Position numbers and translations under genes: made by a program. Positions 1-18,210 of a stretch of 64,000 nt of DNA are shown in pieces. The stretch covers positions 1 through 64,000 of the forward strand of contig CAYSCM010000001.1 in assembly GCA_964429815.1 (NCBI GenBank), given 5' to 3'. Within the stretch, counting starts at the first letter, position 1; the number at the start of each line of letters is the position of its first letter. Source of the DNA: an uncultured Candidatus Saccharibacteria bacterium (GTDB lineage: Bacteria > Patescibacteriota > Minisyncoccia > Phycocordibacterales > CAYSCM01). The notes beneath the pieces were generated by a model. That model was not told where the DNA came from and made no database searches. It saw only the letters and a list, made by a program, of their open reading frames with translations.

Positions 1-3000
1 CGTTGCTTCCCGCTTGGAGACAGCCGGGGCCGGTGGCGAGGTAGAGGGCGGAGGTCGAGGCGTTCCCGGAGACGTAGAGGTTAGTCGTCGTCGCGGAGGT
101 ACCGGTGGCATTCACGAAGGTGACGTTCTGGAGGGTGGTCGAGGCGGTGACGAGGAGGTTGGTCGTGGTGGCCTGACCGGCAATGGTGAGGCCGCTGCCC
201 TGGGTTCCCCCGCCGATCGTCGAGGAGCCGGAGGAGAGGAGGGTACTGAAGGTGCCAAGCCCGGTTGAGGTGAGGTTCCCTGCGGAGAGGACGGTGGCAA
301 AGAGGTTGGTGGAGGAGGCGGTCGTTGCGAAGAAGGAGGTGCTGGTTGCCTTGGTGGTGGTGGCGTTCCCCGAGGAGATGAGGTCGATGAGGCGGGTCAC
401 CCCAGCGTCGGTCACCGAGAGGAGCGTGGTCGACGCCTGGTTGACGAGCTCGAGGGCCTTGGTGGTTGAGGAGGTGCCGCTTCCCCACAGTGTGAGCTTT
501 CCGTACCCGGGAGTCGAGGTGCCGATCGTCGTCGTGCCCGAGACGTTGAGGGCGCCGATGACCGTCGAGGAGGCCCCCGAGATGAAGCCGGTGCTCCTCC
601 AGAGGGAGGAGGTGGCGTTGGTCCAGCTGACGTAGTCGGCGAGGGCCGTGGGGACGACGTAGTCGGTGCCGGCAAGGGCTGTGGTGACCAGGCCGCTGCT
701 CGTCTTGAGCAAGCCGTCCCCGGTTCCCAGGTAGAGGTTGCTGGTCGAGGCGGTGGTGGCGAAGAGGGTCGTGGTGGTGGCGTTGGTGGCGGTGGCGTTG
801 CCGGTCACCGTGAGGGAGCCCACCGTTGAGGAGGCGCGCACCGTGAGGTAGGTGAGGGCGACGGTGCCGGTGGCGTCGATGGAGAGTGCGGAGACGGAGC
901 TGGTGGCGAAGGTGCCCGCCGAGCTCGTGGCGAGGTAGAGGTTCCCGCCGGCGTTCCTGAAGCTCCAGTGGGCGTTCCCGAGCGAGGAGGAGTCGGAGAG
1001 CGTGAGCTGGGGACCGGTCGAAGAAGCAATTTGGAGGGCCCACTGGGGAGAGGTGGTGCCGATGCCGACCTTGAGGGCCGTGTTGGGTGAGATGGCGAAG
1101 GCGTCCGTGGTGGAGGTGGCCCACTTGGAGTTGGCCTGGAGGGCGCAATTGAGGTTGGTCGAGGTGATGAGGCCGTTGCTTCCCGCTTGGAGACAGCCGG
1201 GGCCGGTGGCGAGGTAGAGGGCGGAGGTGGAGGCGGTGCCGGAGACGTAGAGGTTAGTCGTCGTCGCGGAGGTACCGGTGGCATTCACGAAGGTGACGTT
1301 CTGGAGGGTGGTCGAGGCGGTGACGAGGAGGTTGGTCGTGGTGGCCTGACCGGCAATGGTGAGGCCGCTGCCCTGGGTTCCCCCGCCGATCGTCGAGGAG
1401 CCGGAGGAGAGGAGAGTGGCGAAGGTGCCGAGTCCCGTTGAGGTGAGGTTCCCTGCGGAGAGGACGGTGGCAAAGAGGTTGGTGGAGGAGGCGGTCGTTG
1501 CGAAGAAGGAGGTGCTGGTTGCGGCGGTTGAGGTGGAGCGGGTGATGTTGGCGAAGATGGTGGCTCCCGTGAAGGTGTTGTTGTCGCTAAGGAGCGTTGA
1601 GGAGGCGGCGGTTATGCTGCTGCAGGTGACCAATCCAGAGGCGCTGGTGAGCAGGGCAGTTCCGGCGGCGCAGGGGCCGACTCCCAGGTAGAGGGCGGAG
1701 GTGGAGGCGGTGGTGGCGAAGAGGGTCGTGGTGGTGGCGTTGGTGGCGGTGGCGTTGCCGGTCACCGTGAGGGAGCCCACCGTTGAGGAGGCGCGCACCG
1801 TGAGGTAGGTGAGGGCGACGGTGCCGGTGGCGTCGATGGAGAGCGCGGTGCCCGTCGCATTGAGAGAATCCGAGCTCGTGCCGATGCGGAAGATGCCGCC
1901 GATGTTGGAGAGGAGCCAATGTTTGAGGTTAGTCCCGGCGTTGGTGTTCGTGACGGCGATGTAGGGCGTGGCGGAAGCTACCTGGAGGCTCCATGCGGGC
2001 GTCGAGGTGCCGATGCCGACCGATACCGTGTCCTTCCCTGAGGTGCCGCCAAGCACGATGGCACGACTGATGCCAACATTCGCACCTGCGCCGATCGCGG
2101 TCGAGGAGGCGATGTTGTCCACACCGGTCGAAACATCGGCGAGATTACCGACGAAGACACTCGAGCTCACGTTCGTCGGATTAAAAGCTGCGGCATAGCC
2201 GAGCGCGACGTTGTTGGAGCCCGTCTGATTGCCCAAGAGTGCTGAGTCGCCGAGAGCCACGTTGTACGAGCCGCTCGTGTTGTTCTGAAGCGCCACGTAC
2301 CCTACCGCGGTGTTGTGAGAACCGCCGTTTCCGCTGATAAGGGCCGAAGCGCCGAGCGCCGTGTTGTAGGAGCCAGTCCCGTTAGTGAAGAGCGCTGAAT
2401 CGCCGACTGCAGTGTTTTGCGTGCCCGAGGTGTTGTTGGTAAGAGCTACGTTACCGAACGCACTGTTGTTGCTGCCGCCGACGTCTTTGAGGAGCGCCTG
2501 GGAGCCAACCGCGGTGTTGGCTGTGCCTCCTGAAACAGCCTTCAGCGTGTTGTATCCAAGCGCAGTGTTGTCGGTATCACTCACGCCTGCGGCCGCACCT
2601 GAGAGAAGACCGATGTAGATGCTGTGTGAGCCCGTTGGCAATTCGACAAAACGCGTGCCGTTCCAGTAGAGACCGGTAGCAACGAAGTTCGTATCGTTGA
2701 GGGTCGAGGTGCCGGTTCCCTGAACAATGAGGTTCCCTGTTGTTGTTGCCCCACCGGAAATGGTAAGCCCTGACGCTTGGGTTCCCCCACCTATCGTCGA
2801 TGAAGCTGTCGCAAGGAATCCCCCGAGTACCTCAAGTTTGGTGTTAAGCGAGGTGGTCGCGGTGCCGCCGATCACCACCGCTAGTGCGGCATTTGGATAA
2901 ATAGTTAAACCATTGGTCGAGGTTGCAAATTTGTCGGTATTGATGCCCCCACAGGAAGCGCCCGAGACCACTCCCGACCCATTCACTTGGAGACACTGGG

Positions 3001-6000
3001 TCGACCCATTCCCCACCCCAGAGACTACGAGGGCGGAGGTGGAGGCGGTGCCCGTTACCGCCAGGGTCGTCGTGGTGGCGTTGGTGGTCGTCGCATTGAG
3101 AGCGGTGAAGTTTTGGAGCGTCGAGGAGCCGGTAGCAAGGAGGTTGCTGAAGGTGCCAAGCCCGGTTGAGGTGAGGTTCCCTGCGGAGAGGACGGTGGCA
3201 AAGAGGTTGGTGGAGCTGGCCGTGGTGGCAAAGAGGGTCGTGGTGGTGGCGTTGGTGCCGGTGGCGTTTTGGAAGTTCGTGCCCAGGCCGTCGACGTAGA
3301 AGAGCGAGGTGCTGGCGGCGTTCACGACCGAGAGGATGCGTCCCCCGGCATCGATGCTCGTCGGCGCTCCCCCGCCCCACAGCGTGAGCTTCGCGTAGCC
3401 CGTCGAGGTGCCGACCGTGGAGGAGGCGAGGCTCGTGAAGCCGCCGGTGAGGGTCGAGAGGCCGGTGACCGAAAGAGTGCTGCCGAAGGCGCCGCTCCCG
3501 CTGCTCGTGAGGTTCCCTGTCGAGAGGATGGTCGAGAAGAGGTTCGTCGAGCTCGCGGTGGTGGTGAAGAGGGTGGTTCCCGTCGCGTTGGTGAAGGTGA
3601 AGGAGCCGAGGGTGCCCACCGTGAGGGAGCCGATGGTCGCGCTGTTGGCGAAGAGGTTGGTGGTCGAGGCGTTCCCGGAGACGTAGAGGTTAGTCGTCGT
3701 CGCGGAGGTACCGGTGGCATTCACGAAGGTGACGTTCTGGAGGGTGGTCGAGGCGGTGACGAGGAGGTTGGTCGTGGTGGCCTGACCGGCAATGGTGAGG
3801 CCGCTGCCCTGGGTTCCCCCGCCGATCGTCGAGGAGCCGGAGGAGAGGAGGGTACTGAAGGTGCCAAGCCCGGTTGAGGTGAGGTTCCCTGCGGAGAGGA
3901 CGGTGGCAAAGAGGTTGGTGGAGGAGGCGGTCGTTGCGAAGAAAGAGGTGCTGGTTGCGGCGGTTGAGGTGGAGCGGGTGATGTTGGCGAAGATGGTGGC
4001 TCCCGTGAAGGTGTTGTTGTCGCTAAGGAGCGTTGAGGAGGCGGCGGTTATGCTGCTGCAGGTGACCAATCCAGAGGCGCTGGTGAGCAGGGCAGTTCCG
4101 GCGGCGCAGGGGCCGACTCCCAGGTAGAGGGCGGAGGTGGAGGCGGTGGTGGCGAAGAGGGTCGTGGTGGTGGCGTTGGTGGCGGTGGCGTTCACGAAGG
4201 TGACGTTCTGGAGGGTAGTGGAGCCGGTAGCAAGGAGGTTGCTGAAGATGCCAATCCCGGCTGAGGTGAGGTTGCCCGCGTTGATGGAGGTGGCGTAGAG
4301 ATTCGAGGTGCTTGCGACCGATGCGAAGAGGTTCGTGGTCGTCGCCGAGGAGCCTGTAGCGTTTTGGAAGGTAAGGTTCTGGAGCGTTGAGCTTCCGGTC
4401 GCCAGGAGGTTGCTGAAGGTGCCGATACCCGAGCTTGTGATATTTCCTGCGGAAAGAACCGTTGCAAAGAAGTTCGTGGAACTTGCCGTCGTCGCAAATA
4501 AGGTGGTGGTCGTCGCATTGGTGCCGGTGGCGTTGCTGAACGTGATGTTTTGGAAAGTAGAGGAAGCCGTCACGAGGAGGTTGGTGGTGGTAGCCTGGCC
4601 GAAAACCGTGAGACCGCCCCCTTGCGTACCGTTGCCGATGGTCGAAGAAGCGTAGGCGGTGAGGCCGCCGTTGAATTGCGTGAGGGTCGAGGTTGCGTTG
4701 CCCGCAAGCTGAAATGGATACGCTCCGCCACCGCCTGAGCCGCACGCCGCGCCGGTAGCTGAAACGACGCCAGTGCCGGAAATCTGGAGACACTGCGTCG
4801 AGCCGTTCCCAAGACTCGAAATGATAAGCGCAGAGGTCGAGGCGGTGCCGGAGATGGCGAGGTTTGTGGTAGTGGCATTCGTGGTCGTCGCATTGAGAGC
4901 GGTGAAGTTTTGGAGGGTCGTGGAGCCAGTGGCCAGAAGTGTGCTGAAGGTGCCAAGCCCGGTCGAGGTGATGTTACCGGCAGAGAGGACCTGGGCAAAG
5001 AGGTTGGTGGAGCTTGCGGTCGTCGTAAAGAAGTTGGTGGTCGTCGCCGAAGTACCCGTCGCATTCCCAAAGGTGAAGTTCTGGAGGGTGGTCGAGGAGG
5101 TCGCGAGGAGGTTTTGGAGCGTAAAGAGTTTCGTCGTTTTGTTGAACGTAAGCGTTGCGTCGCCGTTGAAGATTCCGCCGTCATTGAACTGCACTTGCGT
5201 GTTGCTTCCGCCCGGGTTACCCGCGCCGCCGTTGGCCGAGAGGCAGGTGCCGTTGATCGAGAAGCATCCGCCGGTGAGATTGACCCCGCTTGCGAGGGTC
5301 GAGGTGGCCGTGGTCGTCGAGACATTGAGGACCCCGACCGAAAGGCCGTTCGCGACCGTCGAGGTACCGGCCGAGGCGGAAATGGAGAGGGCGCCGGTGA
5401 GCGTTCCTCCTGAAAGCGGCAAAAAATTAAGTCCGGTGATCGAGCCAGTGAACGTGGCGTCTTTGATGGTTACACCCGAAAGATTGTCGATGCGGTTGGT
5501 GAGGGCGACGCTCTGGAAATTGGCGGGGGTGGTCGGCGCAGGGCCGCTGAACTGAGGCGTGAACGCGCCGATCGAATAGATTTGGGCGGAAAGTTTATTG
5601 TCGAGCTGGTTCAAACGCACATTGAGCTCATCCTCGGTCACACTTGCAGCGACCGGCGCGCCGGAGACGACGCGCTCGATGGTTCGTTCAACCACTTTCG
5701 TCTGAATGGGCTGAACGATGACCGTCGTACTCGCCGGATTGTACGTGTTGTTGATATTTTGAACGATCGACTGCAGGGAAGGTGCGTTTGAACGGTGCCA
5801 GAACGCGAATATGGCCCGCACCGCGTCATATACGCTCGTCGGAGAAAGCGCGAAAGCGACCTGATGCGAAGCGCTCACGAGTCCCGAGCGGATCTGCGCA
5901 ACACTTACCGAAAATGCTTGCCCAAGACTTTCATGAGCCAACGTATCACGGAGGTTTCGAGAAGAGGAAGACGCTACGGAAGAGGAAACGGCTGCAAGGG

Positions 6001-6871
6001 ATGCGGACACTTTAGAGCGACCAGCGTCTGTGAGTTTGAGGCCAGACACTAAAGACGTGCCGGCAGCGCGTCCGAGCTCAGCGCTACCAACGGAAGCGTG
6101 GAAGGAGAGAGTCCCGATAGTTTCCCCAAGCTGATGGATAACCGCCACGTACCTATCACCAAACTCTAAAACAGCGGATAGAGCCGCTCTGTGAACGTTT
6201 CCACCAAAGGCGCTCACGGCGTCGGAGAACGTCAGAGGCTCTAAGTGAAGTTCAGAGATGGTCCGGGCAAGTTCACGGCCGCTTCGATACACACCAAAAG
6301 CTGGCTCATTCGCATGAATCGCGCCGTAGGAAAGAACAACCGCAACATCACGGAGCACGTTCAACTCTCCTGGAGAAGGAGCAATGCGCTGCGCCAAGGC
6401 GTGGAATCTCTCTGCTCCGGCAAACACTCCCCCGAAGACGCTGAAAAATATAAGCGCTGCCGTCGCCACCCGAAACGCTGAAAATGCAAATATGGCCGGC
6501 TTTCGTGGGGATGTCAACGTTCTGACAGGAAAAGAAATCGGCGCAAGAGGTTCAACCACGACCTTCATCGAAGGGACGAGTCTCGTTGCCGGTTTGGAAA
6601 GAGGTCTCGCGATTGAGTGCGTGGCAGCACGATGGTACTCAGCCTTACGAGATCGACTTATTTCCGCATGGCGACGGGTAGTGCCCTCCTTTGCCTTTGC
6701 GATAAACGCGAAGAAAGATTCCTCTTCAACGTACCAGATGCGCCCGATGCGCTGCGCAGTTACCTTGCCCTGACGACATAGGCGAGCGACATAATCGTTG
6801 GTATAACCAACAGCATCCCCGGCTGCTTTTGCGGAAAGATATTTTTTATCGAGGATGAGTAGGTGACTCAT
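1..6871 (-). CDS. Giant repeat-rich surface/adhesin-like protein, partial (C-terminus beyond window start). N-terminal excisionase-type HTH (HTH_17-like), single TM helix, then >2,200 aa Thr/Ser/Asn/Ala/Gly-rich repeats with Hep_Hag/YadA-head-like and tail-fibre-like modules
   Basis: Manual translation of minus frame (codon top position = 1 mod 3): ATG at 6871-6869 preceded by in-frame TAA (6901-6899); no stop down to position 1 (no M-to-stop ORF in this frame in the ORF track because it runs off the window). N-term MSHLLILDKKYLSAKAAGDAVGYTNDYVARLCRQGKVTAQRIGRIWYVEEE = Xis-like HTH; hydrophobic KPAIFAFSAFRVATAALIFFSVFGGVFAGA = TM; downstream low-complexity repeats e.g. STLQNVTFVNATGTSATTTNLYVSG, NTAVGDSALFTNGTGSYNTALGASAL, KVGIGTTSPQWALQIASST. 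Wrong-frame ORFs in the track (His/Arg-rich, Pro-rich, Gly/Glu-rich) are artefacts of this frame. Confidence 0.75.
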   Translation of the reverse strand, partial: MSHLLILDKKYLSAKAAGDAVGYTNDYVARLCRQGKVTAQRIGRIWYVEEESFFAFIAKAKEGTTRRHAEISRSRKAEYHRAATHSIARPLSKPATRLVPSMKVVVEPLAPISFPVRTLTSPRKPAIFAFSAFRVATAALIFFSVFGGVFAGAERFHALAQRIAPSPGELNVLRDVAVVLSYGAIHANEPAFGVYRSGRELARTISELHLEPLTFSDAVSAFGGNVHRAALSAVLEFGDRYVAVIHQLGETIGTLSFHASVGSAELGRAAGTSLVSGLKLTDAGRSKVSASLAAVSSSVASSSSRNLRDTLAHESLGQAFSVSVAQIRSGLVSASHQVAFALSPTSVYDAVRAIFAFWHRSNAPSLQSIVQNINNTYNPASTTVIVQPIQTKVVERTIERVVSGAPVAASVTEDELNVRLNQLDNKLSAQIYSIGAFTPQFSGPAPTTPANFQSVALTNRIDNLSGVTIKDATFTGSITGLNFLPLSGGTLTGALSISASAGTSTVANGLSVGVLNVSTTTATSTLASGVNLTGGCFSINGTCLSANGGAGNPGGSNTQVQFNDGGIFNGDATLTFNKTTKLFTLQNLLATSSTTLQNFTFGNATGTSATTTNFFTTTASSTNLFAQVLSAGNITSTGLGTFSTLLATGSTTLQNFTALNATTTNATTTNLAISGTASTSALIISSLGNGSTQCLQISGTGVVSATGAACGSGGGGAYPFQLAGNATSTLTQFNGGLTAYASSTIGNGTQGGGLTVFGQATTTNLLVTASSTFQNITFSNATGTNATTTTLFATTASSTNFFATVLSAGNITSSGIGTFSNLLATGSSTLQNLTFQNATGSSATTTNLFASVASTSNLYATSINAGNLTSAGIGIFSNLLATGSTTLQNVTFVNATATNATTTTLFATTASTSALYLGVGPCAAGTALLTSASGLVTCSSITAASSTLLSDNNTFTGATIFANITRSTSTAATSTSFFATTASSTNLFATVLSAGNLTSTGLGTFSTLLSSGSSTIGGGTQGSGLTIAGQATTTNLLVTASTTLQNVTFVNATGTSATTTNLYVSGNASTTNLFANSATIGSLTVGTLGSFTFTNATGTTLFTTTASSTNLFSTILSTGNLTSSGSGAFGSTLSVTGLSTLTGGFTSLASSTVGTSTGYAKLTLWGGGAPTSIDAGGRILSVVNAASTSLFYVDGLGTNFQNATGTNATTTTLFATTASSTNLFATVLSAGNLTSTGLGTFSNLLATGSSTLQNFTALNATTTNATTTTLAVTGTASTSALVVSGVGNGSTQCLQVNGSGVVSGASCGGINTDKFATSTNGLTIYPNAALAVVIGGTATTSLNTKLEVLGGFLATASSTIGGGTQASGLTISGGATTTGNLIVQGTGTSTLNDTNFVATGLYWNGTRFVELPTGSHSIYIGLLSGAAAGVSDTDNTALGYNTLKAVSGGTANTAVGSQALLKDVGGSNNSAFGNVALTNNTSGTQNTAVGDSALFTNGTGSYNTALGASALISGNGGSHNTAVGYVALQNNTSGSYNVALGDSALLGNQTGSNNVALGYAAAFNPTNVSSSVFVGNLADVSTGVDNIASSTAIGAGANVGISRAIVLGGTSGKDTVSVGIGTSTPAWSLQVASATPYIAVTNTNAGTNLKHWLLSNIGGIFRIGTSSDSLNATGTALSIDATGTVALTYLTVRASSTVGSLTVTGNATATNATTTTLFATTASTSALYLGVGPCAAGTALLTSASGLVTCSSITAASSTLLSDNNTFTGATIFANITRSTSTAATSTSFFATTASSTNLFATVLSAGNLTSTGLGTFATLLSSGSSTIGGGTQGSGLTIAGQATTTNLLVTASTTLQNVTFVNATGTSATTTNLYVSGTASTSALYLATGPGCLQAGSNGLITSTNLNCALQANSKWATSTTDAFAISPNTALKVGIGTTSPQWALQIASSTGPQLTLSDSSSLGNAHWSFRNAGGNLYLATSSAGTFATSSVSALSIDATGTVALTYLTVRASSTVGSLTVTGNATATNATTTTLFATTASTSNLYLGTGDGLLKTSSGLVTTALAGTDYVVPTALADYVSWTNATSSLWRSTGFISGASSTVIGALNVSGTTTIGTSTPGYGKLTLWGSGTSSTTKALELVNQASTTLLSVTDAGVTRLIDLISSGNATTTKATSTSFFATTASSTNLFATVLSAGNLTSTGLGTFSTLLSSGSSTIGGGTQGSGLTIAGQATTTNLLVTASTTLQNVTFVNATGTSATTTNLYVSGNASTSALYLATGPGCLQAGSN
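2..350. repeat. Intragenic near-identical DNA repeat, copy A (matches 1176..1524 and 3661..3953)
   Basis: Identical 62-aa and 84-aa spurious ORFs recur at 112..300 / 1285..1473 / 3721..3909 and 14..268 / 1187..1441; direct sequence comparison shows ~300 bp identity with 1-2 mismatches. Confidence 0.85.
1176..1750. repeat. Intragenic near-identical DNA repeat, copy B (about 510 bp near-identical to 3676..4186; 1707..1852 also matches 751..896)
   Basis: ORF 1356..1691 (+) is identical in protein to 3792..4127 (+); direct comparison of the nucleotide rows. Confidence 0.85.
3661..4190. repeat. Intragenic near-identical DNA repeat, copy C
   Basis: See copies A and B; offsets are 2436 bp (B to C) and 3603 bp (A to C). 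Confidence 0.85.
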
Positions 6872-7132
6872 TGGTCGCCCACCCGAAGTGCTTATAGTTT
6901 ACGCCATCATTTCGAAAATTACCTAGAAAAAATGTGGAAAACTGGCCAGGTAATTCCTAGATATGTCGCCACACTTTTTAGCCCTTTGAATAAAGGTTTC
7001 TTAGCTAGTCCAGCGCGAGACCTGCCGAGGCTCATTTATTATTCCGCCCAGTTCAGGCCTAGATTTCTGATGCTCCTCCTGTAGTGCTTTGGCCGAGAAA
7101 TAATATGCCTTAAAACCTATATTTATATATCG

Positions 7133-8305
7133 TTAGAGCTGTAAAAGATGCCCTAGGGCCAGGTATACATTTATAGCCACATGGGCTATGAATCCAAAAG
7201 CCGCGGGAGCTGGCGGAGTCGCGATTTGTGCGATAGGCCTTGTGACGGCGTACGTGCCGCTCAAAAAGCCACTAAGAACAGCAAACAAGAAAGCCGAAAG
7301 CGCAAAGGCGGCTGCTAGGAGCTTTCCAAGGGAGCGAAGGTATCCATAGCGATCGATCGTAAGGGTCTGGGCGGTAACAACCCCAGCAGGGACCAGAAGT
7401 GCCTTTGCACCCTGCTTAGAAGGAGGCGCTGCTACTATGTCGGTCTTCATTGGTTTTGTGAGCGCAGGGATGAGTGGGTGCGCATCTGGATGATAGGTAA
7501 TGGGAACACGACGCTCACCGGAAACTATTCTTTCCTTTATTTGATCCTCATGAGGGGAAATAGGCGCAGTGGTGGCATTGAGAGCGGGAGAATTAAGCAT
7601 ATTTTGTGGGCTGTTTTTTGAAACCTCCTCACGAGATTCTCCCAAACTGACCGACAATGGCGTAGTCCCCAGATCGGCAACCGGGTGAAGCTCAGTTGAT
7701 TGAGGAGCCTCGGTGTTTGTATCCGCCTTTGCGCTCTGAGGTATGCTCTCCGGTAATAGACTCTTTTGAACCTCGGTTTCGAAAAACGTAGGCCACCATG
7801 ACAGGAGCTGGTCGGGAACATTCCCTGCCCCCGGAAGTTTGCTAGGGTTGAAAATGGATTGTTGAGGGAGTCTCTCATAGGTATGTACTCTAGCTACTAA
7901 TGGCTTTACTTGTGCCCGGGACCCTCGTTTTCGACCACGAGCTTCACGGCTGCGGTTTTTCATATACTGTTCAAGCTCCTCTGGGTCCAAAAACCATGAG
8001 CGCCCCACCAGCTTTCCCGCTACCCTTCCAGCACGGATGAGCTGACCGACGTAGTCAGACTCGTACCCGAAAAGCGCGGAGGCCTCCCGTGCAGTTATGT
8101 ATTTTTTGCCGTTGACGAAAAGAGTGTGCTCCACCCTTTCAGTATAGGGCTTTTTTTCTCGGTTACCTGAGAAATGAAGTGGATATGCTGTCAGCAAAAC
8201 TTTTCCGCGGCGTCGTTTTCTGCATTTAGGTAAGCATCCGTGCAAGGAGGTCCCGCAGAAGAACGGGATTAGCTGAGCCCTTACTTGCACGCATTCCCTG
8301 CCCAA
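7133..8305 (-). CDS. HTH_17 (excisionase-like) domain protein with Pro/Ser-rich linker and C-terminal membrane anchor; paralog of the N-terminus of the giant protein. Start uncertain: the M at 8305 overlaps the gatB 3' end by 80 nt; an in-frame TTG at 8197 is possible
   Basis: ORF track 390 aa; motif KKYITAREASALFGYESDYVGQLIRAGRVAGKLVGRSWFL parallels KKYLSAKAAGDAVGYTNDYVARLCRQGKVTAQRIGRIWYV of the giant gene; C-terminal hydrophobic LLAAAFALSAFLFAVLSGFLSG...FGFIAHVAINVYLALGHLL. Confidence 0.55.
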   Translation of the reverse strand: MGRECVQVRAQLIPFFCGTSLHGCLPKCRKRRRGKVLLTAYPLHFSGNREKKPYTERVEHTLFVNGKKYITAREASALFGYESDYVGQLIRAGRVAGKLVGRSWFLDPEELEQYMKNRSREARGRKRGSRAQVKPLVARVHTYERLPQQSIFNPSKLPGAGNVPDQLLSWWPTFFETEVQKSLLPESIPQSAKADTNTEAPQSTELHPVADLGTTPLSVSLGESREEVSKNSPQNMLNSPALNATTAPISPHEDQIKERIVSGERRVPITYHPDAHPLIPALTKPMKTDIVAAPPSKQGAKALLVPAGVVTAQTLTIDRYGYLRSLGKLLAAAFALSAFLFAVLSGFLSGTYAVTRPIAQIATPPAPAAFGFIAHVAINVYLALGHLLQL

Positions 8306-9650
8306 CCAGGTACTGAAGAGCCGTTTCCTTCCCCGCCTTGTACTCGGAGACGACCCCTGGGTTCGCTCGAATTATATCTGCGGCAATTTGAGAGAGGGCG
8401 CTTGGGTCGCTTGTCTGCAAAAGATTCTTTTCCGCAGCAATACGTGCCGGATCTCCGCCACCTTCTATCATGACCTCAAGAATTTCTTTTGCGCCGCGCG
8501 AAGAAATTTTGCTTTCGTCCAGCAATACTATCAAACCGGCGAATGCTTCCGCTGTCATCGGCAGCATCGTGAGCTCAATCCCCCGCTGTGCAAGATGGCC
8601 GCGTACGTCGGAAAGAAGATAGTTGCTTGCTCGTTGAACCGATTCCTTTTGCACAAGGTGCGATGCCGTACGCTCAAAAAATTCCGCCATCAGCATATCC
8701 GACGTCAAAAGCTGTGCATCACTTTCCTTAATGCCAAAATCGCGCTGATAGCGCGCTTGCTTCTCCCACGGAAGTTCAGCCATGTCTTGCTTGAGAGCTT
8801 CCGGTAAAAATTCCGGTATCTCCGAGCGATACAACTTTGGGAGATCGGGGTCAGGAAAATAGCGATAGTCGTGAGACTCTTCCTTGAGGCGCTGCGAAAA
8901 TGTCTGCTGCTTCCCCTCGTCCCATCCGCGTGTTTCTTGCAAAACTTTTTCACCACGTTCAAGGAGTACGCGTTGCCGATTGATTTCGAATTCGATCGCG
9001 CGCTCAACGGAGCGAAACGAGTTGAGATTTTTTACTTCGACTTTCGTCCCACGTTCATCCCCCTTCCCTACTGAGACGTTTGCTTCGATACGCATCTGGC
9101 CCTTCTCCATATTTGCCTCACCGGCTCCGAGCGTACGCAGCAGGAGCTGCAACTTGCGTGCGAAATCTCCTGCCTCCGCTGCAGTGTGAATTACCGGCTC
9201 CGTAACAAGTTCCATGAGCGGCACACCAGCCCGATTGAAATCGATGAGGCTGTAGTCATCCTTATGTTGAGAACGCGCCGTATCCTCCTCGAGGTGGACG
9301 CGTGTGAGGGATACGTTGTGAAGGTTCCCTCCCTGCACCAGAGGGTACTGATACTGGCTTATTTGATAGCCTTTGGGAATGTCCGGATAGAAGTAATTTT
9401 TGCGATCAAACTCCGTGAAATCAGCAAGCGTACCTCCGACCGCAATGCCGATTTTAAGTACGTGCTTGACTGCCTCTTTATTCACCACGGGAAGAGTGCC
9501 CGGGTGAGCCATACAGACGGGGCAAATGTTCGTATTCGCCTCCTTTTCGTCGGGGTCGTTCTTGCAACGGCAAAACATTTTCGTCGCCGTCTTAAGCTCC
9601 GCGTGAACTTCGAGGCCTATGGTTGGTCGGTATGCGCCCTCCGTTTTCAT
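8226..9650 (-). CDS. gatB: Asp-tRNA(Asn)/Glu-tRNA(Gln) amidotransferase subunit B
   Basis: 474 aa; RPTIGLEVHAEL, CPVCMAHPGTLPVVN, GatB/YqeY C-terminal region. Confidence 0.95.
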   Translation of the reverse strand: MKTEGAYRPTIGLEVHAELKTATKMFCRCKNDPDEKEANTNICPVCMAHPGTLPVVNKEAVKHVLKIGIAVGGTLADFTEFDRKNYFYPDIPKGYQISQYQYPLVQGGNLHNVSLTRVHLEEDTARSQHKDDYSLIDFNRAGVPLMELVTEPVIHTAAEAGDFARKLQLLLRTLGAGEANMEKGQMRIEANVSVGKGDERGTKVEVKNLNSFRSVERAIEFEINRQRVLLERGEKVLQETRGWDEGKQQTFSQRLKEESHDYRYFPDPDLPKLYRSEIPEFLPEALKQDMAELPWEKQARYQRDFGIKESDAQLLTSDMLMAEFFERTASHLVQKESVQRASNYLLSDVRGHLAQRGIELTMLPMTAEAFAGLIVLLDESKISSRGAKEILEVMIEGGGDPARIAAEKNLLQTSDPSALSQIAADIIRANPGVVSEYKAGKETALQYLVGQGMRASKGSANPVLLRDLLARMLT

Positions 9651-9668
9651 GGAGGGAATACTAGCAGA

Positions 9669-10643
9669 TTAGGAAAGCGCACTCAAAAAGGCGACGAGCT
9701 CATCGCGCGCTGTTTTGATGCTCCCGTCATCAAGGACCGATACCGGCATGACAAGGGCCTTGTGCACTGCAAGAAGAGCCCTTATCTCGGCTATCCGAGT
9801 AGAAGATACTGTGTCTGCTTTCGTGAGCACTATCATCTCGGCCTTCTCGGGGAGGGCACTGTCGAACGCGCGAAGTTCTTGTCGTACGGTCTCATACTGG
9901 GAAAGCGGGTCGACGGCATCCGCATTGACGCAGTGGATAAGTGCTTTGGTGCGACGGATATGCCGCAGGAATTTATACCCGAGCCCCTTCCCCTGATGTG
10001 CTCCCTCGATGAGGCCGGGAATATCGGCGAGGACGAACCCGTACATAACGCCGAGGTTCGGCTCGAGCGTCGTGAATGCGTAGCTGCCGACCTTGGCTTT
10101 GGCGTTGGTGAGCGCGTTGAGAAGGCTCGATTTCCCCGCATTAGGAACACCGACAAGTCCGGCGTCAGCGATAAGCTGAAGTTCGACGCGAAACATTCCT
10201 TCTTCGCCGGGCTTTCCTTCGGTCGATTCTGTCGGTGAGCGATTGACGGAACTCTTGAAGTACTCGTTCCCCAGACCTCCACGCCCGCCGGAAAGGACCG
10301 TTTCGACCTGCCCCTCGGTGAGAAGCTCGAAAGCTCCCCCCGTTTCCCTATTGGTGACTATCGAACCGATGGGAAGATCAATGGTGAGAGCATCTCCGTC
10401 GCGACCGTGCTTACTGCCCGAGCGTCCGTTCCCGCCGTTCTCGGCGATGAATTCTTTTTTTCCCGTGTAGCGCGAAAGGGCAGCGAGGTCGCGAATGCCG
10501 TGGATGCGCACATCTCCTCCCCTACCGCCATCGCCTCCGGCAGGACCTGCGAGATCTTTTGTTTTGATATGGAGCCAACGGACGACACCGCTCCCGCCAT
10601 GGCCGGCACGGGCGTAAAAACGTAGCTCGTCGACAAATGCCAT
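9669..10643 (-). CDS. obg: GTPase Obg/CgtA (short form, no C-terminal TGS extension)
   Basis: 324 aa; Obg fold glycine-rich N-domain (GGDGGRGGDV), G motifs GVPNAGKSSLLNALTNAK, DIPGLIEGA, LTKAD. Confidence 0.93.
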   Translation of the reverse strand: MAFVDELRFYARAGHGGSGVVRWLHIKTKDLAGPAGGDGGRGGDVRIHGIRDLAALSRYTGKKEFIAENGGNGRSGSKHGRDGDALTIDLPIGSIVTNRETGGAFELLTEGQVETVLSGGRGGLGNEYFKSSVNRSPTESTEGKPGEEGMFRVELQLIADAGLVGVPNAGKSSLLNALTNAKAKVGSYAFTTLEPNLGVMYGFVLADIPGLIEGAHQGKGLGYKFLRHIRRTKALIHCVNADAVDPLSQYETVRQELRAFDSALPEKAEMIVLTKADTVSSTRIAEIRALLAVHKALVMPVSVLDDGSIKTARDELVAFLSALS

Positions 10644-10682
10644 AGAGGTCAGCCTACGACACAGGAGCCTTTTAGCAAAACG

Positions 10683-11018
10683 CTAGAAGAGACGGTGCGA
10701 GAGCCACACAGCAAGCGAGAGGAGCGCCGAACCGACGAGCGCGGCGATGAAACCCGAGACGTAGAACCCTGGTACGAGACTGGCAATAAGCCAGAAAAGG
10801 ACCGCGTTGAGGATGAAGGAGAACAGTCCGAACGAGATGATGGTGATGGGGAACGTCAGAAGCTCGAGCATGGGCTTTAGAGTGACGCTTATGATGGCCC
10901 ACACGACGGCGACAATGACGGCCGTTTGCCAATCGGAAATGGAAATTCCCAAATTCGCATGCGTGATGGCAAGGAGCGCGGCGGTAATGACAGCGATACG
11001 TAGAAGAATTTTTATCAT
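10683..11018 (-). CDS. Small 4-TM membrane protein, phage-holin-4-like (DUF360/YvlD-type)
   Basis: 111 aa, four hydrophobic segments; the R/H-rich ORF 10672..11049 in another frame is rejected. Confidence 0.55.
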   Translation of the reverse strand: MIKILLRIAVITAALLAITHANLGISISDWQTAVIVAVVWAIISVTLKPMLELLTFPITIISFGLFSFILNAVLFWLIASLVPGFYVSGFIAALVGSALLSLAVWLSHRLF

Positions 11019-11024
11019 ATGACC

Positions 11025-11519
11025 TTATGCGACGCGCGCCCGGGCCCACTCGTGGGACATACCTAGACGCCTCTCCTCCGCCATAACAAGCTCATCGTAG
11101 ATACCGTCAATAAGATTGTATCCTTTGGCTTCACTGAGAGTGACCCACGCATGCTCGTCCATTTCATCCCTCTGGAGCGTGACGTCCCCTCCAGCATAAT
11201 CCGCGAGACAGGAAATCACCAGCGAGGCTTTGGAGTCTGCGTGCACCGTAGCAAGCGACGTGAGGTATTCGATATGCTCGATATCGATGCCCACCTCCTC
11301 TTTCACCTCACGTCGCAAGGTTCGCTCAAGAACGTTGTACCAGTAATGTTCAGTGTCCTTCGGGAGGGCGAGATAGTCATTCGCCTCGAGCTTACCGCCG
11401 GGCACCGTCCACATACCGGGAAATCGTTTTTTATTCGCCGAACGCCGCGCGATGAGGTACTTCCCCTCCCGGACGACGATAGCGGTAATGGCGACCTCAT
11501 GGAGCGTGTTCGCGCTCAT
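11025..11519 (-). CDS. NUDIX hydrolase
   Basis: Nudix box region RREVKEEVGIDIE; start taken at internal Met (cat at 11517-11519) because the longer ORF to 11891 overlaps the upstream permease gene. Confidence 0.75.
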   Translation of the reverse strand: MSANTLHEVAITAIVVREGKYLIARRSANKKRFPGMWTVPGGKLEANDYLALPKDTEHYWYNVLERTLRREVKEEVGIDIEHIEYLTSLATVHADSKASLVISCLADYAGGDVTLQRDEMDEHAWVTLSEAKGYNLIDGIYDELVMAEERRLGMSHEWARARVA

Positions 11520-11536
11520 GGGTCCAGTATACTTCA

Positions 11537-12313
11537 CTATTGCTTGAGCCCTAGTCCTTTTTTGAGAAGGTACCAGGAGAACCCCGTGAGGATGAGGGTC
11601 AAGGTAAGAAGTACCGCAAGCGAGAGGGTGAGCGACACGTCCGCGAACCCGAGAAAGCCGTACCGGAACCCATTGATGAGATAGAAAATCGGGTTGACGT
11701 GGGAGATCGTCTGCCAAAACGCCGGCAGGGAACTCACGGAGTAGAAGATGCCGCCGAGGTAGATGAGCGGGGTGAGAAAAAACGTCGGTACGATATTGAT
11801 GCCGTCGATCGACTTCGCATAGACGCCGTTGACGAGGCCACCGAGGGAAAAGATGAGGCTCGAGAGTATGAAGAAGAGCGCGACGATCCATACGTTCGCG
11901 ACGACGAGGTGCGTGAAGCCAAGCGAAACGAGGAGCACCAGGAATCCCACCAGTATGCCGCGCGCGACGCCGCCGGCGATGTAGCCCGCTATCATAATGG
12001 AGGGGGGCGTCGGGGATACGAGCACTTCATCGATATTGCGGGCGAAGAATTTCGAAGCGAAAAACGTGAACGCAACGTTGTTGTACGCGTTCATGATTAT
12101 CTGCATCATCACGAGTCCCGGCACTACGAAAAGCGTGTAGGAGGTGCCGCCGATGGAGCCAATGCGCGAGCCTAGGAACGCTCCAAAGATGAGAAAATAG
12201 AGAATCGAGGTAATGAGCGCCGGTAGAAAGGTCTGCGGCCAAATACGGAACATTCGCACGACATCCTTGCGCACGATGGTATAAAACGATATCCAAAGAC
12301 CTTTCGCGTCCAT
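11537..12313 (-). CDS. ABC-2 type transporter permease
   Basis: 258 aa, 6 TM segments, ABC-2 family topology; adjacent to the ATPase. Confidence 0.85.
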   Translation of the reverse strand: MDAKGLWISFYTIVRKDVVRMFRIWPQTFLPALITSILYFLIFGAFLGSRIGSIGGTSYTLFVVPGLVMMQIIMNAYNNVAFTFFASKFFARNIDEVLVSPTPPSIMIAGYIAGGVARGILVGFLVLLVSLGFTHLVVANVWIVALFFILSSLIFSLGGLVNGVYAKSIDGINIVPTFFLTPLIYLGGIFYSVSSLPAFWQTISHVNPIFYLINGFRYGFLGFADVSLTLSLAVLLTLTLILTGFSWYLLKKGLGLKQ

Positions 12314-12314
12314 A

Positions 12315-13250
12315 TCAGGCGCCGTTACCCTTTCCCGTTAAGCGCACGAACACCTCCTCGAGACGCCCCGACTTGCTGCGTATCGCCTGTATCGGAAAAC
12401 CGTTCTTGTTGAGGGAGAGTATCGCATCGTTGAGACCGAGCCCCTCCCCTATTTCTATTTCGAGGGTAGTATCATCGACTTTTTTCGCCCGGTACGCAGA
12501 AAGGTCCGCGAGCGCATGTGCGTTCACCGGTTTGACGAGATCGACGAGCACGGACTCTGTCTTGAGCTGACCGAGAATGTCTTTCATGGTGCCGGAGGCG
12601 ATTATCTCTCCCTTGTTTATGATAGCGACGTGCTTGCAGAGCTGCTCTGCTTCCTCGAGATAGTGGGTGGTGAGGAGAATAGTAATGCCGGCGCCAGTGA
12701 GGGTTTTGAGGTAATCCCACATGCCACGGCGCAGCTCCACGTCGACACCGGCCGTCGGCTCATCGAGGATGAGGAACGTCGGCTGATGAATGAGAGCGCG
12801 GGCGATCATGAGACGCCTCTTCATGCCGCCCGAGAGCGCCATAGACTTCTGGTCCTTTTTGTTGTAGATGCCAAGGTCGCGAAGTATCTGCTCCGCGCGC
12901 GGGATGGCGATGGAACGGGGGATGCCGTAGTAGCCTGCCTGGTTCACGACGACATCGATGACTTTTTCGAAGATATTGAAGTTGAGCTCCTGCGGTACGA
13001 CACCGATGTAAGTGCGCGCCTTTTCGTGATTGACGTCGATATCGGTGTCGAAGACCTTGATACTGCCTCCAGATTTCGTGACGAGCCCCGTAACAATGCC
13101 GATGACCGTGGTCTTTCCCGCGCCGTTGGGGCCCAGAAGCGCGAAAAAATCCCCCTGTGGGACGATGAGATCGACGCCCTTAAGCGCGACGGTGCCGCTC
13201 GTGTAGACCTTTTTAAGACCCTTTATTTCAAGCGCATTTTCTTTCGACAT
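12315..13250 (-). CDS. ABC transporter ATP-binding protein
   Basis: Walker A GPNGAGKTT, signature LSGGMKRRL, Walker B ILDEPT; start at internal Met 13250 (MSKENALEIKGL...), upstream extension rejected. Confidence 0.9.
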   Translation of the reverse strand: MSKENALEIKGLKKVYTSGTVALKGVDLIVPQGDFFALLGPNGAGKTTVIGIVTGLVTKSGGSIKVFDTDIDVNHEKARTYIGVVPQELNFNIFEKVIDVVVNQAGYYGIPRSIAIPRAEQILRDLGIYNKKDQKSMALSGGMKRRLMIARALIHQPTFLILDEPTAGVDVELRRGMWDYLKTLTGAGITILLTTHYLEEAEQLCKHVAIINKGEIIASGTMKDILGQLKTESVLVDLVKPVNAHALADLSAYRAKKVDDTTLEIEIGEGLGLNDAILSLNKNGFPIQAIRSKSGRLEEVFVRLTGKGNGA

Positions 13251-13296
13251 GGGAAAAGTCCAGCCATGATACCACATCGCTCTTTGGGGCGCCGTT

Positions 13297-13746
13297 TTAT
13301 CTCTTTCCGGAGCGCTCCGTGTACGCTGCAAGAAGCCACGAGCTTGATTGGATCTTATCCCCGAGGCCGAACGCCATCCGTATCCCGAGTCGCTCACAGA
13401 GCTCCATTTCCGGAGTTGTTTTATCCGTGCGGTCACCGCCATTGCCAAAAATGTCAGGACGAAGTTTCTCGAGCGCCGCGCAGACGGTCATGTCGGCGGG
13501 GTCTGCTGGGTGCTCTGTGATAATGACCTCGTCGACGACACGGAGCGCCTCAAGGATTTTTTTGCGCTCATCTTGCGACATGAAGGGTTTCCCCTTCTTT
13601 TTGCGCAACCAATTGTCGTTATTGAGTATCACGACCAGGCGATCTCCCAACTTTTTTGCCGCCTCAAAGAGCTCCACGTGGCCGATATGCACAGGGTCAA
13701 AACCTCCAGAGACCGCGACGATACTTTTCTTTTTTCTTGCACTCAT
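13297..13746 (-). CDS. Cytidylyltransferase-like nucleotidyltransferase (RfaE domain II / heptose-1-P adenylyltransferase-like)
   Basis: 149 aa; SGGFDPVHIGHVELF (HxGH motif), ...LNNDNWLRKKKGKPFMSQDERKKILEALRVVDEV. Confidence 0.7.
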   Translation of the reverse strand: MSARKKKSIVAVSGGFDPVHIGHVELFEAAKKLGDRLVVILNNDNWLRKKKGKPFMSQDERKKILEALRVVDEVIITEHPADPADMTVCAALEKLRPDIFGNGGDRTDKTTPEMELCERLGIRMAFGLGDKIQSSSWLLAAYTERSGKR

Positions 13747-13928
13747 GGTTACCGTTTAAACTCTTGTACCCTCCCGCACCAGGGGCAATGCCACTTCTTT
13801 TTCCTCAGAGGTGCATCCGCAATTGACCACCATTTGTGACAAAAAGCGCAACGAAAATGCGAGAGTCTTTCCACGCTTCTTTTTCCTTTTTTCTTCACCT
13901 TACTACGACCCTGCGATTGGCCAGGTTA

Positions 13929-14789: not shown

Positions 14790-14793
14790 ACCT

Positions 14794-15288: not shown

Positions 15289-15316
15289 AGACGTATGATA
15301 CACCTCGTGTACTTCA

Positions 15317-15348
15317 GAAAGAAAAAGCCGCTCGATTGTTCGAGCGGC
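15317..15348 (-). terminator. Rho-independent terminator (minus strand): GCCGCTCGA-acaa-TCGAGCGGC followed by TTTTTCTTTC
   Basis: Read from the reverse complement of 15317..15348. Confidence 0.6.
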
Positions 15349-15551
15349 AGCTGCAGCCGATCCTATACTACATTCCGGCCGGCACACCTCGAGGGGTGTG
15401 CGCGGTTTTTGGTCGGTCCAACACTGATCAGGTGTTAGGTTCGGGGGATTCCCGAAGCTTGATCGCCTGGGCGCACCGGTTAGATCGCGGGTGATCAAAT
15501 CCCGAAATCGCCGGCTAATTGTCCGCTTCCCGCCACTGCAGCCGAGACTAT

Positions 15552-18077: not shown

Positions 18078-18159
18078 AGGAGGATACTAGCCTAAAACCG
18101 CCGCGCCTGCTAGACGCGGCGGTTCGGCCGACCCAGGGTTTAGGCGTAAATCAAACCCC

Positions 18160-18197: not shown

Positions 18198-18210
18198 TAG
18201 AGACATGGAG

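Follow-up and report, generated by a model that had tools for sequence, protein, structure and literature searches.

Why would a protein with a DNA-binding fold inside the cell end, on the outside, in a fibre of some two thousand residues? This question is raised by one edge of the 64,000-nt stretch of DNA analysed here (the window), where an earlier reading, hereafter the original prediction, described a giant minus-strand gene whose product would join an excisionase-type helix-turn-helix (HTH) through a single transmembrane (TM) helix to a long repeat region, and proposed a membrane-tethered transcription factor or sensor. Host recognition and response in ultra-small episymbiotic CPR bacteria are poorly understood, and these organisms possess few classical regulators.

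Results

The giant reading frame and its support

On the minus strand a stop codon at 6901-6899 is followed by a first ATG at 6871, and the next 2,290 codons are free of stops; the longest open run in the other two minus-strand frames is 390 codons. The predicted uninterrupted frame of more than 6.8 kb is therefore real, and it is absent from the ORF listing because it runs past the end of the window (Table 1). Gene callers chose the same start on two short-read contigs from two other sequencing runs, L001 (position 9557 of which corresponds to window 6871) and L002. These contigs are 100% identical to the window down to 4886 and 4983, respectively, and stop where the repeats of the giant ORF begin. 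The first 629-662 aa, comprising the HTH, the TM, the stalk and the first repeats in one frame (up to 1,986 nt), are thus independently confirmed, and support for the remaining ~4.9 kb comes from the window's own assembly alone. Direct repeats of 300 nt with 95-100% identity were found at 43-342, 1216-1515 and 3652-3951, so that the repeat copy number could be wrong. In the metagenome contigs an exact 50-mer scan for the giant gene gave no match and a protein scan returned relatives at 45-54% identity only; exact-protein matches to GatB and to the small paralogue next door came solely from short-read contigs ending inside the repeats. The sequencing runs SRR12313479-82 contain this locus. An in-frame ATG/GTG is present at aa 102/105, just ahead of the TM. 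A translation start downstream of the HTH nevertheless appears unlikely, because HTH and TM are encoded together by a single ORF in 132 of the 150 family representatives, as well as at every orthologous locus with enough sequence.

Table 1. Features of the giant gene and its upstream neighbourhood, in window positions
Feature	Position	Strand	Basis or detail
Giant ORF	1..6871	minus	ATG at 6871, 2,290 codons open to base 2; window edge cuts 3' end
Cytoplasmic winged HTH (wHTH), aa 1-49	6725..6871	minus	beta-hairpin, H14-21, recognition helix H25-34, wing 39-49; excisionase/MerR-type
Long basic helix running on from HTH, aa 50-88	6608..6724	minus	AF2 helix 50-88, pLDDT 88-98
Basic Pro/Ser/Arg-rich cytoplasmic linker, aa 89-123	6503..6607	minus	pLDDT 53-60 (low confidence)
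Single TM signal-anchor, aa ~124-155, predicted N-in/C-out	6407..6502	minus	hydrophobicity, AF2, positive-inside bias
Non-repetitive extracellular stalk, ~315 aa, aa 156-470	5462..6406	minus	no internal repeat matches before aa ~470
Thr/Ser/Gly/Ala/Leu/Asn-rich repeats, aa 471-2290, at least 1,820 aa	2..5461	minus	self-comparison, composition
Tail-fibre-type module, aa ~1408-1661	1892..2644	minus	tblastn to phage records
Intergenic region (leader), 261 nt	6872..7132	minus	
G-rich putative SD	6878-6884		in intergenic region
-10-like TAAACT/TATAAG	6891-6901		in intergenic region
Three TCTAGG words	6922, 6956, 7058		in intergenic region
DnaA-box-like TTTTCCACA	6933-6941		in intergenic region
Small paralogue, 333 aa	7133..8134	minus	gene call of 333 aa on L001/L002
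Upstream syntenic block	8226..20906	minus	Pfam, synteny in ~40/44 loci
GatB	8226-9650	minus	Pfam
Obg	9669-10643	minus	Pfam
Phage_holin_4_2-like	10683-11018	minus	Pfam
SecA	15552-18077	minus	Pfam
Perfect TTATCCACA	18434-18442		upstream of secA
Wzy_C-TPR	18726-20906	minus	Pfam

A winged helix-turn-helix precedes the membrane segment

The AF2 model of residues 1-49 has a pLDDT above 95 and displays a winged-helix fold of the Xis/BldC type, with two helices and a beta wing. A fold search gave BldC, Xis, TraN and RdfS as the nearest structures, and the best neighbours are all DNA binders. At the sequence level the motif at aa 12-59 scores 17.3 bits against Pfam HTH_17 (PF12728; E 0.006), under the gathering cut-off of 27, and is the only Pfam hit in aa 1-400 besides CHASE8 at E 0.13; a search of the giant protein against NCBIfam, TIGR01764 included, gave no match. 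Family members pass the HTH_17 cut-off (P0026, 61.3 bits; P0043, 58.2; P0110, 52.2; P0108, 40.6), and P0026 is also above that of TIGR01764 with 47.6 bits. The giant's own membership of HTH_17 would thus hold by transitive homology only. Of the predicted HTH_17/Xis-like motif, the fold stands, carried by the model, the structural neighbours and the passing relatives, and the direct Pfam assignment of the giant does not.

The structural neighbours are small excisionase-MerR-type wHTH proteins (PDB 6ama/6amk, 4j2n, 8dgl, 4p0y; PMC5859096, PMC11963761, PMC10877727), and TraN binds dsDNA by means of two excisionase-like repeats (PMC10877727). They are soluble proteins of 50-120 aa with neither membrane anchor nor ectodomain, whereas the giant has both, scores below the HTH_17 threshold and sits in a locus devoid of recombinase or conjugation context. 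A role as recombination directionality factor was rejected on the missing integrase, the housekeeping synteny and the lack of viral-contig relatives.

Three positions are nearly invariant across the family HTHs (R33, G43-R/K44 and W46), and very strong conservation of the core GY..DY[IV]..L.R.GK extends over thousands of proteins. The recognition helix itself carries signatures that differ by orthologue, DY[IV]GQL in gene 1 and DYVx[RK]L in gene 2, which argues for specific ligands. At its start lies an invariant acidic residue, D26, which counts against DNA coupling. The basic helix that follows bears a family motif, R..(E)LS..R..EY, conserved in alignments, and a net charge of +3; the linker adds +5 and the whole cytoplasmic part reaches +12. 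From the fold and its relatives alone we infer that the predicted wHTH of the giant probably does bind DNA, with somewhat better than even confidence.

A single predicted membrane anchor

One TM helix after the HTH had been foreseen, and a single hydrophobic segment was found, which is the sole Kyte-Doolittle peak above 1.6 in the whole protein and coincides with an AF2 helix at 129-163. Lysine and arginine average 3.5 before the TM versus 1.25 after it in 137 family members. The positive-inside rule, in the giant as well as in these members, therefore backs a predicted topology in which the HTH lies inside and the fibre outside.

An ectodomain module resembles phage tail fibres

The order given in the original prediction, a non-repetitive region and then giant Thr/Ser/Asn repeats of tail-fibre type, is what the self-comparison and the phage matches reveal. 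By reading the sequences, the end of the stalk appears as a 'neck', VVERTIERVV...LNQLDNKL...NRIDNLSGVTI, common to the giant relatives P0026, P0108 and P0044. The repeat region is composed of 20.9% T, 13.6% S, 12.5% G and 7.7% N with 3% charged residues, and comprises a ~57-aa unit of the type '...SSTLQNFTF.NATGT.ATTTNLFATTASSTNLF...', 'GIGTTSP' modules and large near-identical duplications (aa 894-1075 = 1701-1880; aa 978-1075 = 2181-2280). These repeats are shared with other proteins of Patescibacteria, where some of them follow ordinary signal peptides. N-x-S/T sequons are only slightly more frequent than expected (66, against 48 +/- 5.6), a figure from which we make no claim of N-glycosylation.

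Within the repeats, the module at aa ~1408-1661 consists of 14-15-residue 'N-T-A-V/L-G-x-x-A-L' repeats followed by '...VGIGTSTPAWSLQV'. In tblastn it matched 105 phage records annotated as tail fibre, tail spike or endo-N-acetylneuraminidase (best E 2e-22, 34-49% identity). The ectodomain gave no match in Pfam, NCBIfam, PHROGs or PDB sequences, and neither Hep_Hag nor any other adhesin model matched in Pfam at E<=1 over the 2,290 aa. The proposed beta-solenoid-like fold was not supported, the AF2 monomer model of repeats aa 561-920 being uninformative at a pLDDT of 51.

Several homologues end in the trimerisation chaperone Peptidase_S74, namely P0045, P0110 and L015, a complete syntenic orthologue of 2,299 aa (E 8e-13), and the fibre is for this reason probably trimeric. 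Trimerisation of the giant is an extrapolation from these homologues, whose ectodomains cannot be aligned to its own; in a whole-protein BLASTP with L015 only aa 9-107 align. The trimeric symmetry that Peptidase_S74 suggests does not obviously correspond to the symmetry of DNA sites.

The homologous module and the Peptidase_S74 ends thus link the protein to the shafts of phage tail fibres and endosialidase-type tailspikes, from which it differs in being chromosomal, in its housekeeping neighbourhood and in its N-terminal TM in the cell membrane instead of a virion baseplate. YadA-like trimeric autotransporter adhesins have Hep_Hag/HIM head repeats and a C-terminal YadA_anchor beta-barrel; in the 2,290 aa of the giant no adhesin domain was matched, its anchor is the N-terminal TM, and its C-terminal end lies outside the window. 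Giant surface proteins have also been described in CPR/Absconditicoccaceae and other episymbionts; these too are very large, envelope-targeted through TM or signal sequences, encoded in reduced genomes and presumed to serve host attachment (PMC8080830, PMC13059738). Those of the CPR/Absconditicoccaceae carry adhesion and enzymatic domains with no cytoplasmic HTH described, and belong to a different CPR class (PMC8080830, PMC13059738).

A conserved tandem pair and a family of thousands

The neighbouring small paralogue carries an HTH_17-type wHTH at aa 12-61 (E 2.7e-5; 24.8 bits, cut-off 27; TIGR01764 E 6e-4), a ~210-aa low-complexity cytoplasmic linker, a TM at aa ~272-290 and hardly any ectodomain beyond it. 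In BLASTP it is 29% identical to the giant's N-terminus (E 1e-12). An HTH-TM pair 3' of secA-obg-gatB is present in ~40 of 44 Paceibacteria loci, and its second gene is often a giant at the same position, of up to >3,400 aa. The giant is therefore the large member of a class-wide conserved tandem pair, a small HTH-TM protein and then a large one, that follows secA-obg-gatB. The 44 genome loci are nearly all labelled as Patescibacteria lineages. Other neighbours are ABC transporter and glycan genes, and the neighbourhood yielded neither integrase nor phage genes.

A search with the HTH profile gave 8,496 protein cluster representatives at E<=1e-3 and 4,788 at <=1e-10. Tandem double HTHs are present in 143 of the top 150 representatives. 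Of the same 150, 8 exceed 1,000 aa, with lengths of up to 7,214 aa; another member of the family has 5,533 aa. Across the family the HTH-TM cassette is joined to ectodomains whose length ranges from ~40 to ~7,000 aa. A word-indexed homology search with aa 1-480 gave two matches, both through the HTH, and with the HTH profile mostly stand-alone HTHs of 82-127 aa. No viral relatives were found in 2.9 million viral contigs (IMG/VR), and a prophage origin was rejected on this absence and on the synteny. The source names encountered are 'hypothetical protein' throughout, and we found no description in the literature of an HTH_17/excisionase-TM family or an HTH-TM cassette in CPR. The giant thus belongs to a lineage-specific family of thousands with the layout 'HTH(x1-2)-linker-TM-variable ectodomain', and the search for similar architectures in related genomes was amply answered. 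Of its anatomy and family assignment we are highly confident.

The upstream intergenic region

The long AT-rich leader noted in the original prediction has the stated length and no sign of a special role. It has no Rfam match and no excess RNA structure (MFE z 0.26), on which a riboswitch or structured RNA was rejected, and a scan for consensus promoters and terminators was negative for the strand of the gene. Orthologous loci, taken for comparison, place the giant's predicted promoter at most ~30 nt from the ATG, behind a conserved DnaA-box-like element, leaving what looks like ordinary intergenic DNA. An oriC was rejected as well, with a single relaxed DnaA box in the leader and no box cluster in the window. 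A conserved cis element, TT(A/T)TCCACA, was detected 5' of HTH genes (13 of 64 genes versus 0.42 expected). It speaks for DNA coupling, but it is identical to the DnaA-box consensus, and DnaA rather than these HTHs may simply bind it.

Discussion

Our proposal is that the giant is a type II, membrane-anchored adhesive fibre of Paceibacteria (Patescibacteria/CPR) that is coupled to DNA; for this statement in full our confidence is evenly balanced. The signal-anchor would be inserted by Sec, and the ectodomain would form a tail-fibre-like structure, probably glycosylated, that attaches to hosts or particles. The HTH would bind DNA at the inner face of the membrane, and through the cassette a structure of the envelope would in this manner be coupled to the chromosome. 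BldC, Xis, RdfS and TraN multimerise on repeated DNA sites; most likely, therefore, the loading of HTHs onto DNA would be set by how the anchored proteins cluster or oligomerise. The output could be ToxR-like transcriptional control or RacA-like tethering.

Transcriptional control specifically by the giant's HTH is a tentative suggestion. ToxR, CadC and TcpP are bitopic membrane-bound one-component transcription factors with an OmpR/PhoB-type domain (Trans_reg_C), a small outer sensor and often a partner gene next door. With them the giant shares the predicted bitopic N-in layout, with an N-terminal cytoplasmic HTH, a single TM and an outer C-terminal part. There is however no homology between them, the HTH being of HTH_17 type instead of Trans_reg_C and the outer part a fibre of >2,000 aa. 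The transcription factor or sensor of the original prediction is one of at least three live readings, and a possible one with the balance somewhat against it. It is weakened because the same cassette carries ectodomains of such different sizes, the neighbour having nearly none; such indifference to ectodomain size suits a general role as anchor or adaptor no less than one in signalling.

The role of anchor or adaptor is taken to its limit if the HTH has been repurposed. RodZ has a cytoplasmic N-terminal Xre-type HTH (HTH_25) that binds MreB, followed by basic residues beside the membrane, one TM helix and a small ectodomain. The giant resembles it in having an N-terminal cytoplasmic HTH at the membrane, a basic stretch and a single TM, as well as in the variable Ser/Thr/Pro-rich outer region of RodZ, and differs in lacking any HTH_25/Xre match, in its excisionase/MerR-type fold neighbours and in the absence of any detected sequence or family relationship. 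By analogy, wHTH and basic helix would bind no DNA and would serve in protein-protein contacts or oligomerisation, docking proteins of the envelope to some conserved partner in the cytoplasm (cytoskeleton, divisome, secretion or glycosylation machinery) as a generic surface-protein anchor. The range of ectodomains, the occurrence of the same repeats behind ordinary signal peptides, the acidic D26 in the recognition helix and an HTH core kept in thousands of proteins, as would suit one conserved partner, all speak for this reading. We nonetheless hold it to be rather unlikely, given DNA binders as best structural neighbours, a strongly basic cytoplasmic region (+12), conserved recognition-helix Arg and wing Gly-Arg/Lys typical of excisionase-type DNA contacts, and stand-alone relatives of 82-106 aa like BldC and Xis.

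A little less probable still is a chromosome-to-membrane tether of the RacA/Noc kind, in which the HTHs would bind many sites or bind non-specifically and hold the nucleoid, or a region of it, at the membrane or attachment site with no transcriptional output. RacA, which anchors the chromosome in Bacillus subtilis, is a soluble protein that depends on DivIVA to reach the membrane; its structure (PDB 5i41) matches the giant's HTH weakly, and its sequence does not. The family belongs to the syntenic core and not to the accessory genes, the paralogue without ectodomain makes sense as a pure tether, and the prevalent tandem double HTHs resemble TraN. Yet we found no cluster of repeated sites in the window, with one DnaA-box-like word in the leader, the orthologue-specific recognition helices point to specific instead of generic binding, and nothing ties the fibre itself to chromosome organisation.

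Finally, a mobile-element or phage remnant (a chance or assembly fusion of an excisionase with a prophage tail-fibre gene), or an artefact hiding a separate HTH gene or a start at M102, is highly improbable and largely refuted here: although HTH_17/excisionase, tail-fibre-like modules and Peptidase_S74 are typical phage parts, start codons lie in frame before the TM and repeats so nearly identical could have been mis-assembled, thousands of proteins show the same fusion, as do ~40 syntenic loci set among housekeeping genes. Neither integrase or phage neighbours nor viral-contig relatives were found, three independent assemblies agree on the HTH-TM-stalk part, and conservation of the HTH is seen in its protein sequence, in the same frame as the TM.

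Returning to the DNA-coupled fibre, we may speculate that Paceibacteria rely on the HTH-TM cassette as their chief means of signalling from outside to inside, with fibres and small partners turning host contact, assembly or tension into DNA binding, gene control or chromosome positioning at the attachment site, in replacement of two-component systems that are largely lacking and with the DnaA-box-like element in the same circuit. We regard this wider scheme as a long shot.

Taken together, the analysis delimits a large protein family, syntenic and spread across the class, that is wholly unannotated and in which surface proteins, some of them longer than 7,000 aa, carry a DNA-binding fold at their inner end. 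Should the HTH bind DNA, a single polypeptide would link the cell surface to the chromosome, and the family would offer a testable candidate for the sensing of contact or the anchoring of the chromosome. Were the HTH no more than an anchor, the cassette would still be a useful marker of the surface fibres of Paceibacteria and of a hypervariable locus, driven by repeats, at which short-read assemblies break.

Results

The uninterrupted minus-strand frame of more than 6.8 kb in the original prediction is indeed present: after a stop at 6901-6899 and a first ATG at 6871, 2,290 stop-free codons run to base 2, and the remaining two minus-strand frames are open for at most 390 codons. This giant gene is missing from the ORF list solely because it reaches past the window end. 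L001 and L002, short-read contigs obtained in other sequencing runs, match the window at 100% identity and their gene calls begin at the same ATG; this gives independent confirmation of the first ~660 aa, in which HTH, membrane segment and stalk share one frame. Both contigs stop exactly where the internal repeats set in, at 4886 and 4983 of the window, because of the long direct repeats within the gene. Since some of these are 300 nt long and lie in sequence covered by the window assembly alone, which includes everything past ~660 aa, repeat number is the giant's least certain feature.

Features of the giant protein (aa) and of the surrounding DNA (nt)
Feature	Position	Strand	Remarks
Winged helix-turn-helix	aa 1-49		beta-hairpin, helices 14-21 and 25-34, beta wing 39-49 (AlphaFold2)
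Long helix	aa 50-88		AlphaFold2
Basic linker	aa 89-123		low model confidence
Membrane segment	aa ~124-155		sole strongly hydrophobic stretch
Non-repetitive stalk	aa 156-470		terminates in neck motif common to other giant members
Repeat region	aa 471-2290		mosaic of ~57-aa units and large near-identical duplications
Near-identical duplications	aa 894-1075 = 1701-1880; aa 978-1075 = 2181-2280
Tail-fibre module	aa ~1408-1661		homology to phage proteins
300-nt direct repeats	43-342, 1216-1515, 3652-3951		95-100% identity
Further long intragenic direct repeats	720-891, 1677-1848		95-100% identity
TAAACT/TATAAG	6891-6901		upstream of giant
TTTTCCACA	6933-6941	minus	upstream of giant
TCTAGG	6922-6927, 6956-6961, 7058-7063	minus	3 of 10 window copies, within 142 nt
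Small paralogue	7133-8134	minus	333 aa, directly upstream of giant
Phage_holin_4_2-family gene	10683-11018	minus	small membrane protein, between secA and obg
Perfect TTATCCACA	18434-18442	minus	upstream of secA
Surface-glycan cluster (most of this stretch)	18726-64000

The excisionase-type HTH expected at the N-terminus was modelled by AlphaFold2, from 56 family sequences, as a winged helix-turn-helix with a pLDDT of 90-98 over aa 1-88. Pfam HTH_17 gives the giant only 17.3 bits (cut-off 27); because other family members score above the curated cut-offs of HTH_17 and TIGR01764, we assign the domain to HTH_17 by transitive homology. A single TM, a non-repetitive region and giant repeats follow in the order predicted. 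The cytoplasmic 123 residues hold 22 K/R and 10 D/E. Exactly one TM follows the HTH(s) in 132 of the 150 best family representatives, and K+R averages 3.5 in the 15 residues before the TM against 1.25 after it (137 family members), making N-in/C-out a well-supported prediction. The 1,820-aa repeat region is 34% Thr+Ser, with just 56 charged residues and no Met. Its tail-fibre character held for the module listed in the table: 105 phage records contain homologues of it under the annotations tail fibre, tailspike or endo-N-acetylneuraminidase (best E 2e-22). Sequence searches of Pfam, NCBIfam, PHROGs and the PDB gave no further matches. For the repeats, a monomer model reached a pLDDT of just 51 and was not informative.

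The small paralogue opens with an HTH like that of the giant (E 2.7e-5 against HTH_17; E 1e-12 in BLASTP between the two proteins), followed by ~210 low-complexity residues and a terminal membrane segment with almost nothing outside. The 64-kb window holds no further copies. When 1.84 billion cluster representatives were searched with a profile of the HTH region, 8,496 proteins matched at E<=1e-3, of which 4,788 reach E<=1e-10. All source names seen were "hypothetical protein". The usual member has 300-400 aa and two tandem HTHs; among the top 150, eight are longer than 1,000 aa, with proteins of 5,533 and 7,214 aa among them. Many small members (P0001, P0005 and P0007 for example) carry at the C-terminus a conserved extracellular motif of ~35 aa, PDG.SGVI.P.FK......YLYVLVPV, missing from both window proteins. 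Soluble relatives of the same subfamily also occur (P0152, P0157, P0161, P0163, P0165, P0167, P0170; 82-107 aa, one or two HTHs, no TM), some on 7-29-kb contigs. Such stand-alone forms show that the HTH(+helix) unit works on its own too.

On contigs from one genome per species the profile found 44 loci, nearly all labelled as Patescibacteria lineages (Kaiser-, Taylor-, Zambryski-, Nomura- and Campbellbacteria, Paceibacteria, Minisyncoccia). Two are labelled otherwise: L033, "Gammaproteobacteria", shows CPR synteny, and L015, "Rhodospirillales" (WHTW01000002.1, 60-64% GC), lacks the secA-obg-gatB synteny and carries a taxonomic caveat, being a high-GC CPR contig placed in the wrong bin or else a rare case outside Patescibacteria. 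Pilin-like (N_methyl) genes lie downstream of the L015 fibre gene. P0213, another protein with the ectodomain repeats, carries a Bradyrhizobium label.

In ~40 of the 44 loci, as in the window, the HTH-TM gene or genes come immediately after (Wzy_C-TPR)-SecA-(holin_4_2-like)-Obg-GatB in the same orientation; the holin-family gene is kept in this block in ~25 Paceibacteria loci. A tandem pair occurs in 21 loci, with distinct recognition-helix signatures (gene 1 DY[IV]GQL, gene 2 DYVx[RK]L). The second gene is often giant (L006, >3,416 aa; L013, >3,393; L032, >3,387; L040, >2,714, all four truncated by the contig end or by the length retrieved; L044, 2,631 and complete), and many contigs terminate within it. 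The L044 protein (Zambryskibacteria MAG, 9974-17869) carries a mid-ectodomain intein at aa ~1280-1605 (Intein_splicing E 3e-17, Hint), into which an NYN nuclease-like domain (E 4e-24) is inserted. Because ectodomains of orthologues are not alignable (against L015, only aa 9-107 of the giant align), the locus is conserved in position and inner module and hypervariable outside. Since the giant's repeats also occur in Patescibacteria proteins behind ordinary signal peptides, outer and inner parts are separable modules. Peptidase_S74, an intramolecular chaperone typical of trimeric tail fibres, ends three homologues (L015, complete at 2,299 aa; P0045; P0110).

A special role for the AT-rich leader of ~260 nt was not supported: neither an excess of RNA structure (z 0.26) nor an Rfam match was found for these 261 nt of intergenic DNA. 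Orthologous loci share an order of TT(A/T)TCCACA (sense strand), ~30-35 nt, a TATAAT-like box and the start codon, and on this layout the giant's promoter probably lies within ~30 nt of the ATG, in ordinary intergenic DNA. TT(A/T)TCCACA occurs <=160 nt upstream of 13 of 64 HTH-TM genes (0.42 expected), and before secA in about ten loci. In the window its counterparts lie at 6933-6941, ahead of the giant, and at 18434-18442, ahead of secA. Across Paceibacteria, we noted it before HTH-TM genes in L005, L007, L010, L013, L016, L018, L020, L024, L025, L034, L042 and L048-L053, and before secA in L012, L014, L019, L022, L026, L027, L029, L035 and L043. It is identical to the DnaA-box consensus and may serve as a promoter element, either dependent on DnaA or specific to the family; a replication origin was rejected because a DnaA-box cluster is absent. 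Separately, TCTAGG recurs in this region, CTAG words being otherwise depleted in the window (10 found, 19 expected); two copies agree at 15/20 nt (A.ATCTAGG..T.A.CTGG). The pattern may be due to chance or represent a direct repeat of operator type.

Most of the remaining 45 kb is a glycan and nonulosonic-acid cluster encoding the Wzy_C-TPR protein of the conserved block (O-antigen-ligase/O-oligosaccharyltransferase-like), bifunctional ATP-sulfurylase/APS kinase, NeuB, CMP-sugar-synthetase-like and KDO-phosphatase-like proteins, radical SAM and TPP enzymes, a Polysacc_synt flippase, PfkB and epimerases. Glycans for the Thr/Ser-rich fibre, which could be sulfated nonulosonic acids, may come from this cluster.

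Discussion

The giant is a bitopic protein of the envelope, its inner part a bona fide excisionase/MerR-type wHTH and its outer part tail-fibre-like giant repeats. The family it comes from is paired and syntenic and extends across the class. Its inner domain is of the excisionase/HTH_17 superfamily by fold and transitive homology, but unlike a true excisionase its sequence falls below threshold and its locus lacks recombinase context. We propose that Sec would insert the signal-anchor and that the ectodomain would be an attachment fibre, probably trimeric and, alongside the glycan cluster and the Wzy_C-TPR gene, probably glycosylated. The HTH would then bind DNA at the membrane. BldC, Xis, RdfS and TraN act as multimers assembled on repeated sites (PMC5859096, PMC11963761, PMC10877727), so the natural control point would be whether the anchored proteins cluster or oligomerise.

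The output could be transcription control as by ToxR, a possible rather than probable reading, or tethering of the RacA kind, which seems unlikely; the architecture resembles ToxR/CadC and RodZ, but the DNA-binding family is that of neither. An adaptor role without DNA binding, as in RodZ, is doubtful in itself and yet a serious rival, because the cassette of HTH, linker and TM is joined to ectodomains of any length, none included. A phage remnant or artefact is very improbable and largely excluded; 2.9 million viral contigs yielded no relatives. The outer part is homologous to phage tail fibres but anchored in the cell membrane.

Membrane-bound HTH proteins and giant fibre adhesins are already known, and we rate their combination here a variant of these. 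Giant CPR surface proteins have been reported without a cytoplasmic HTH (PMC8080830, PMC13059738), and we found no literature description of the HTH-TM cassette. The long direct repeats in the gene would permit recombinational length variation of the fibre. For CPR cell biology the HTH-TM-fibre family, with its putative function, is a subject of genuine interest.
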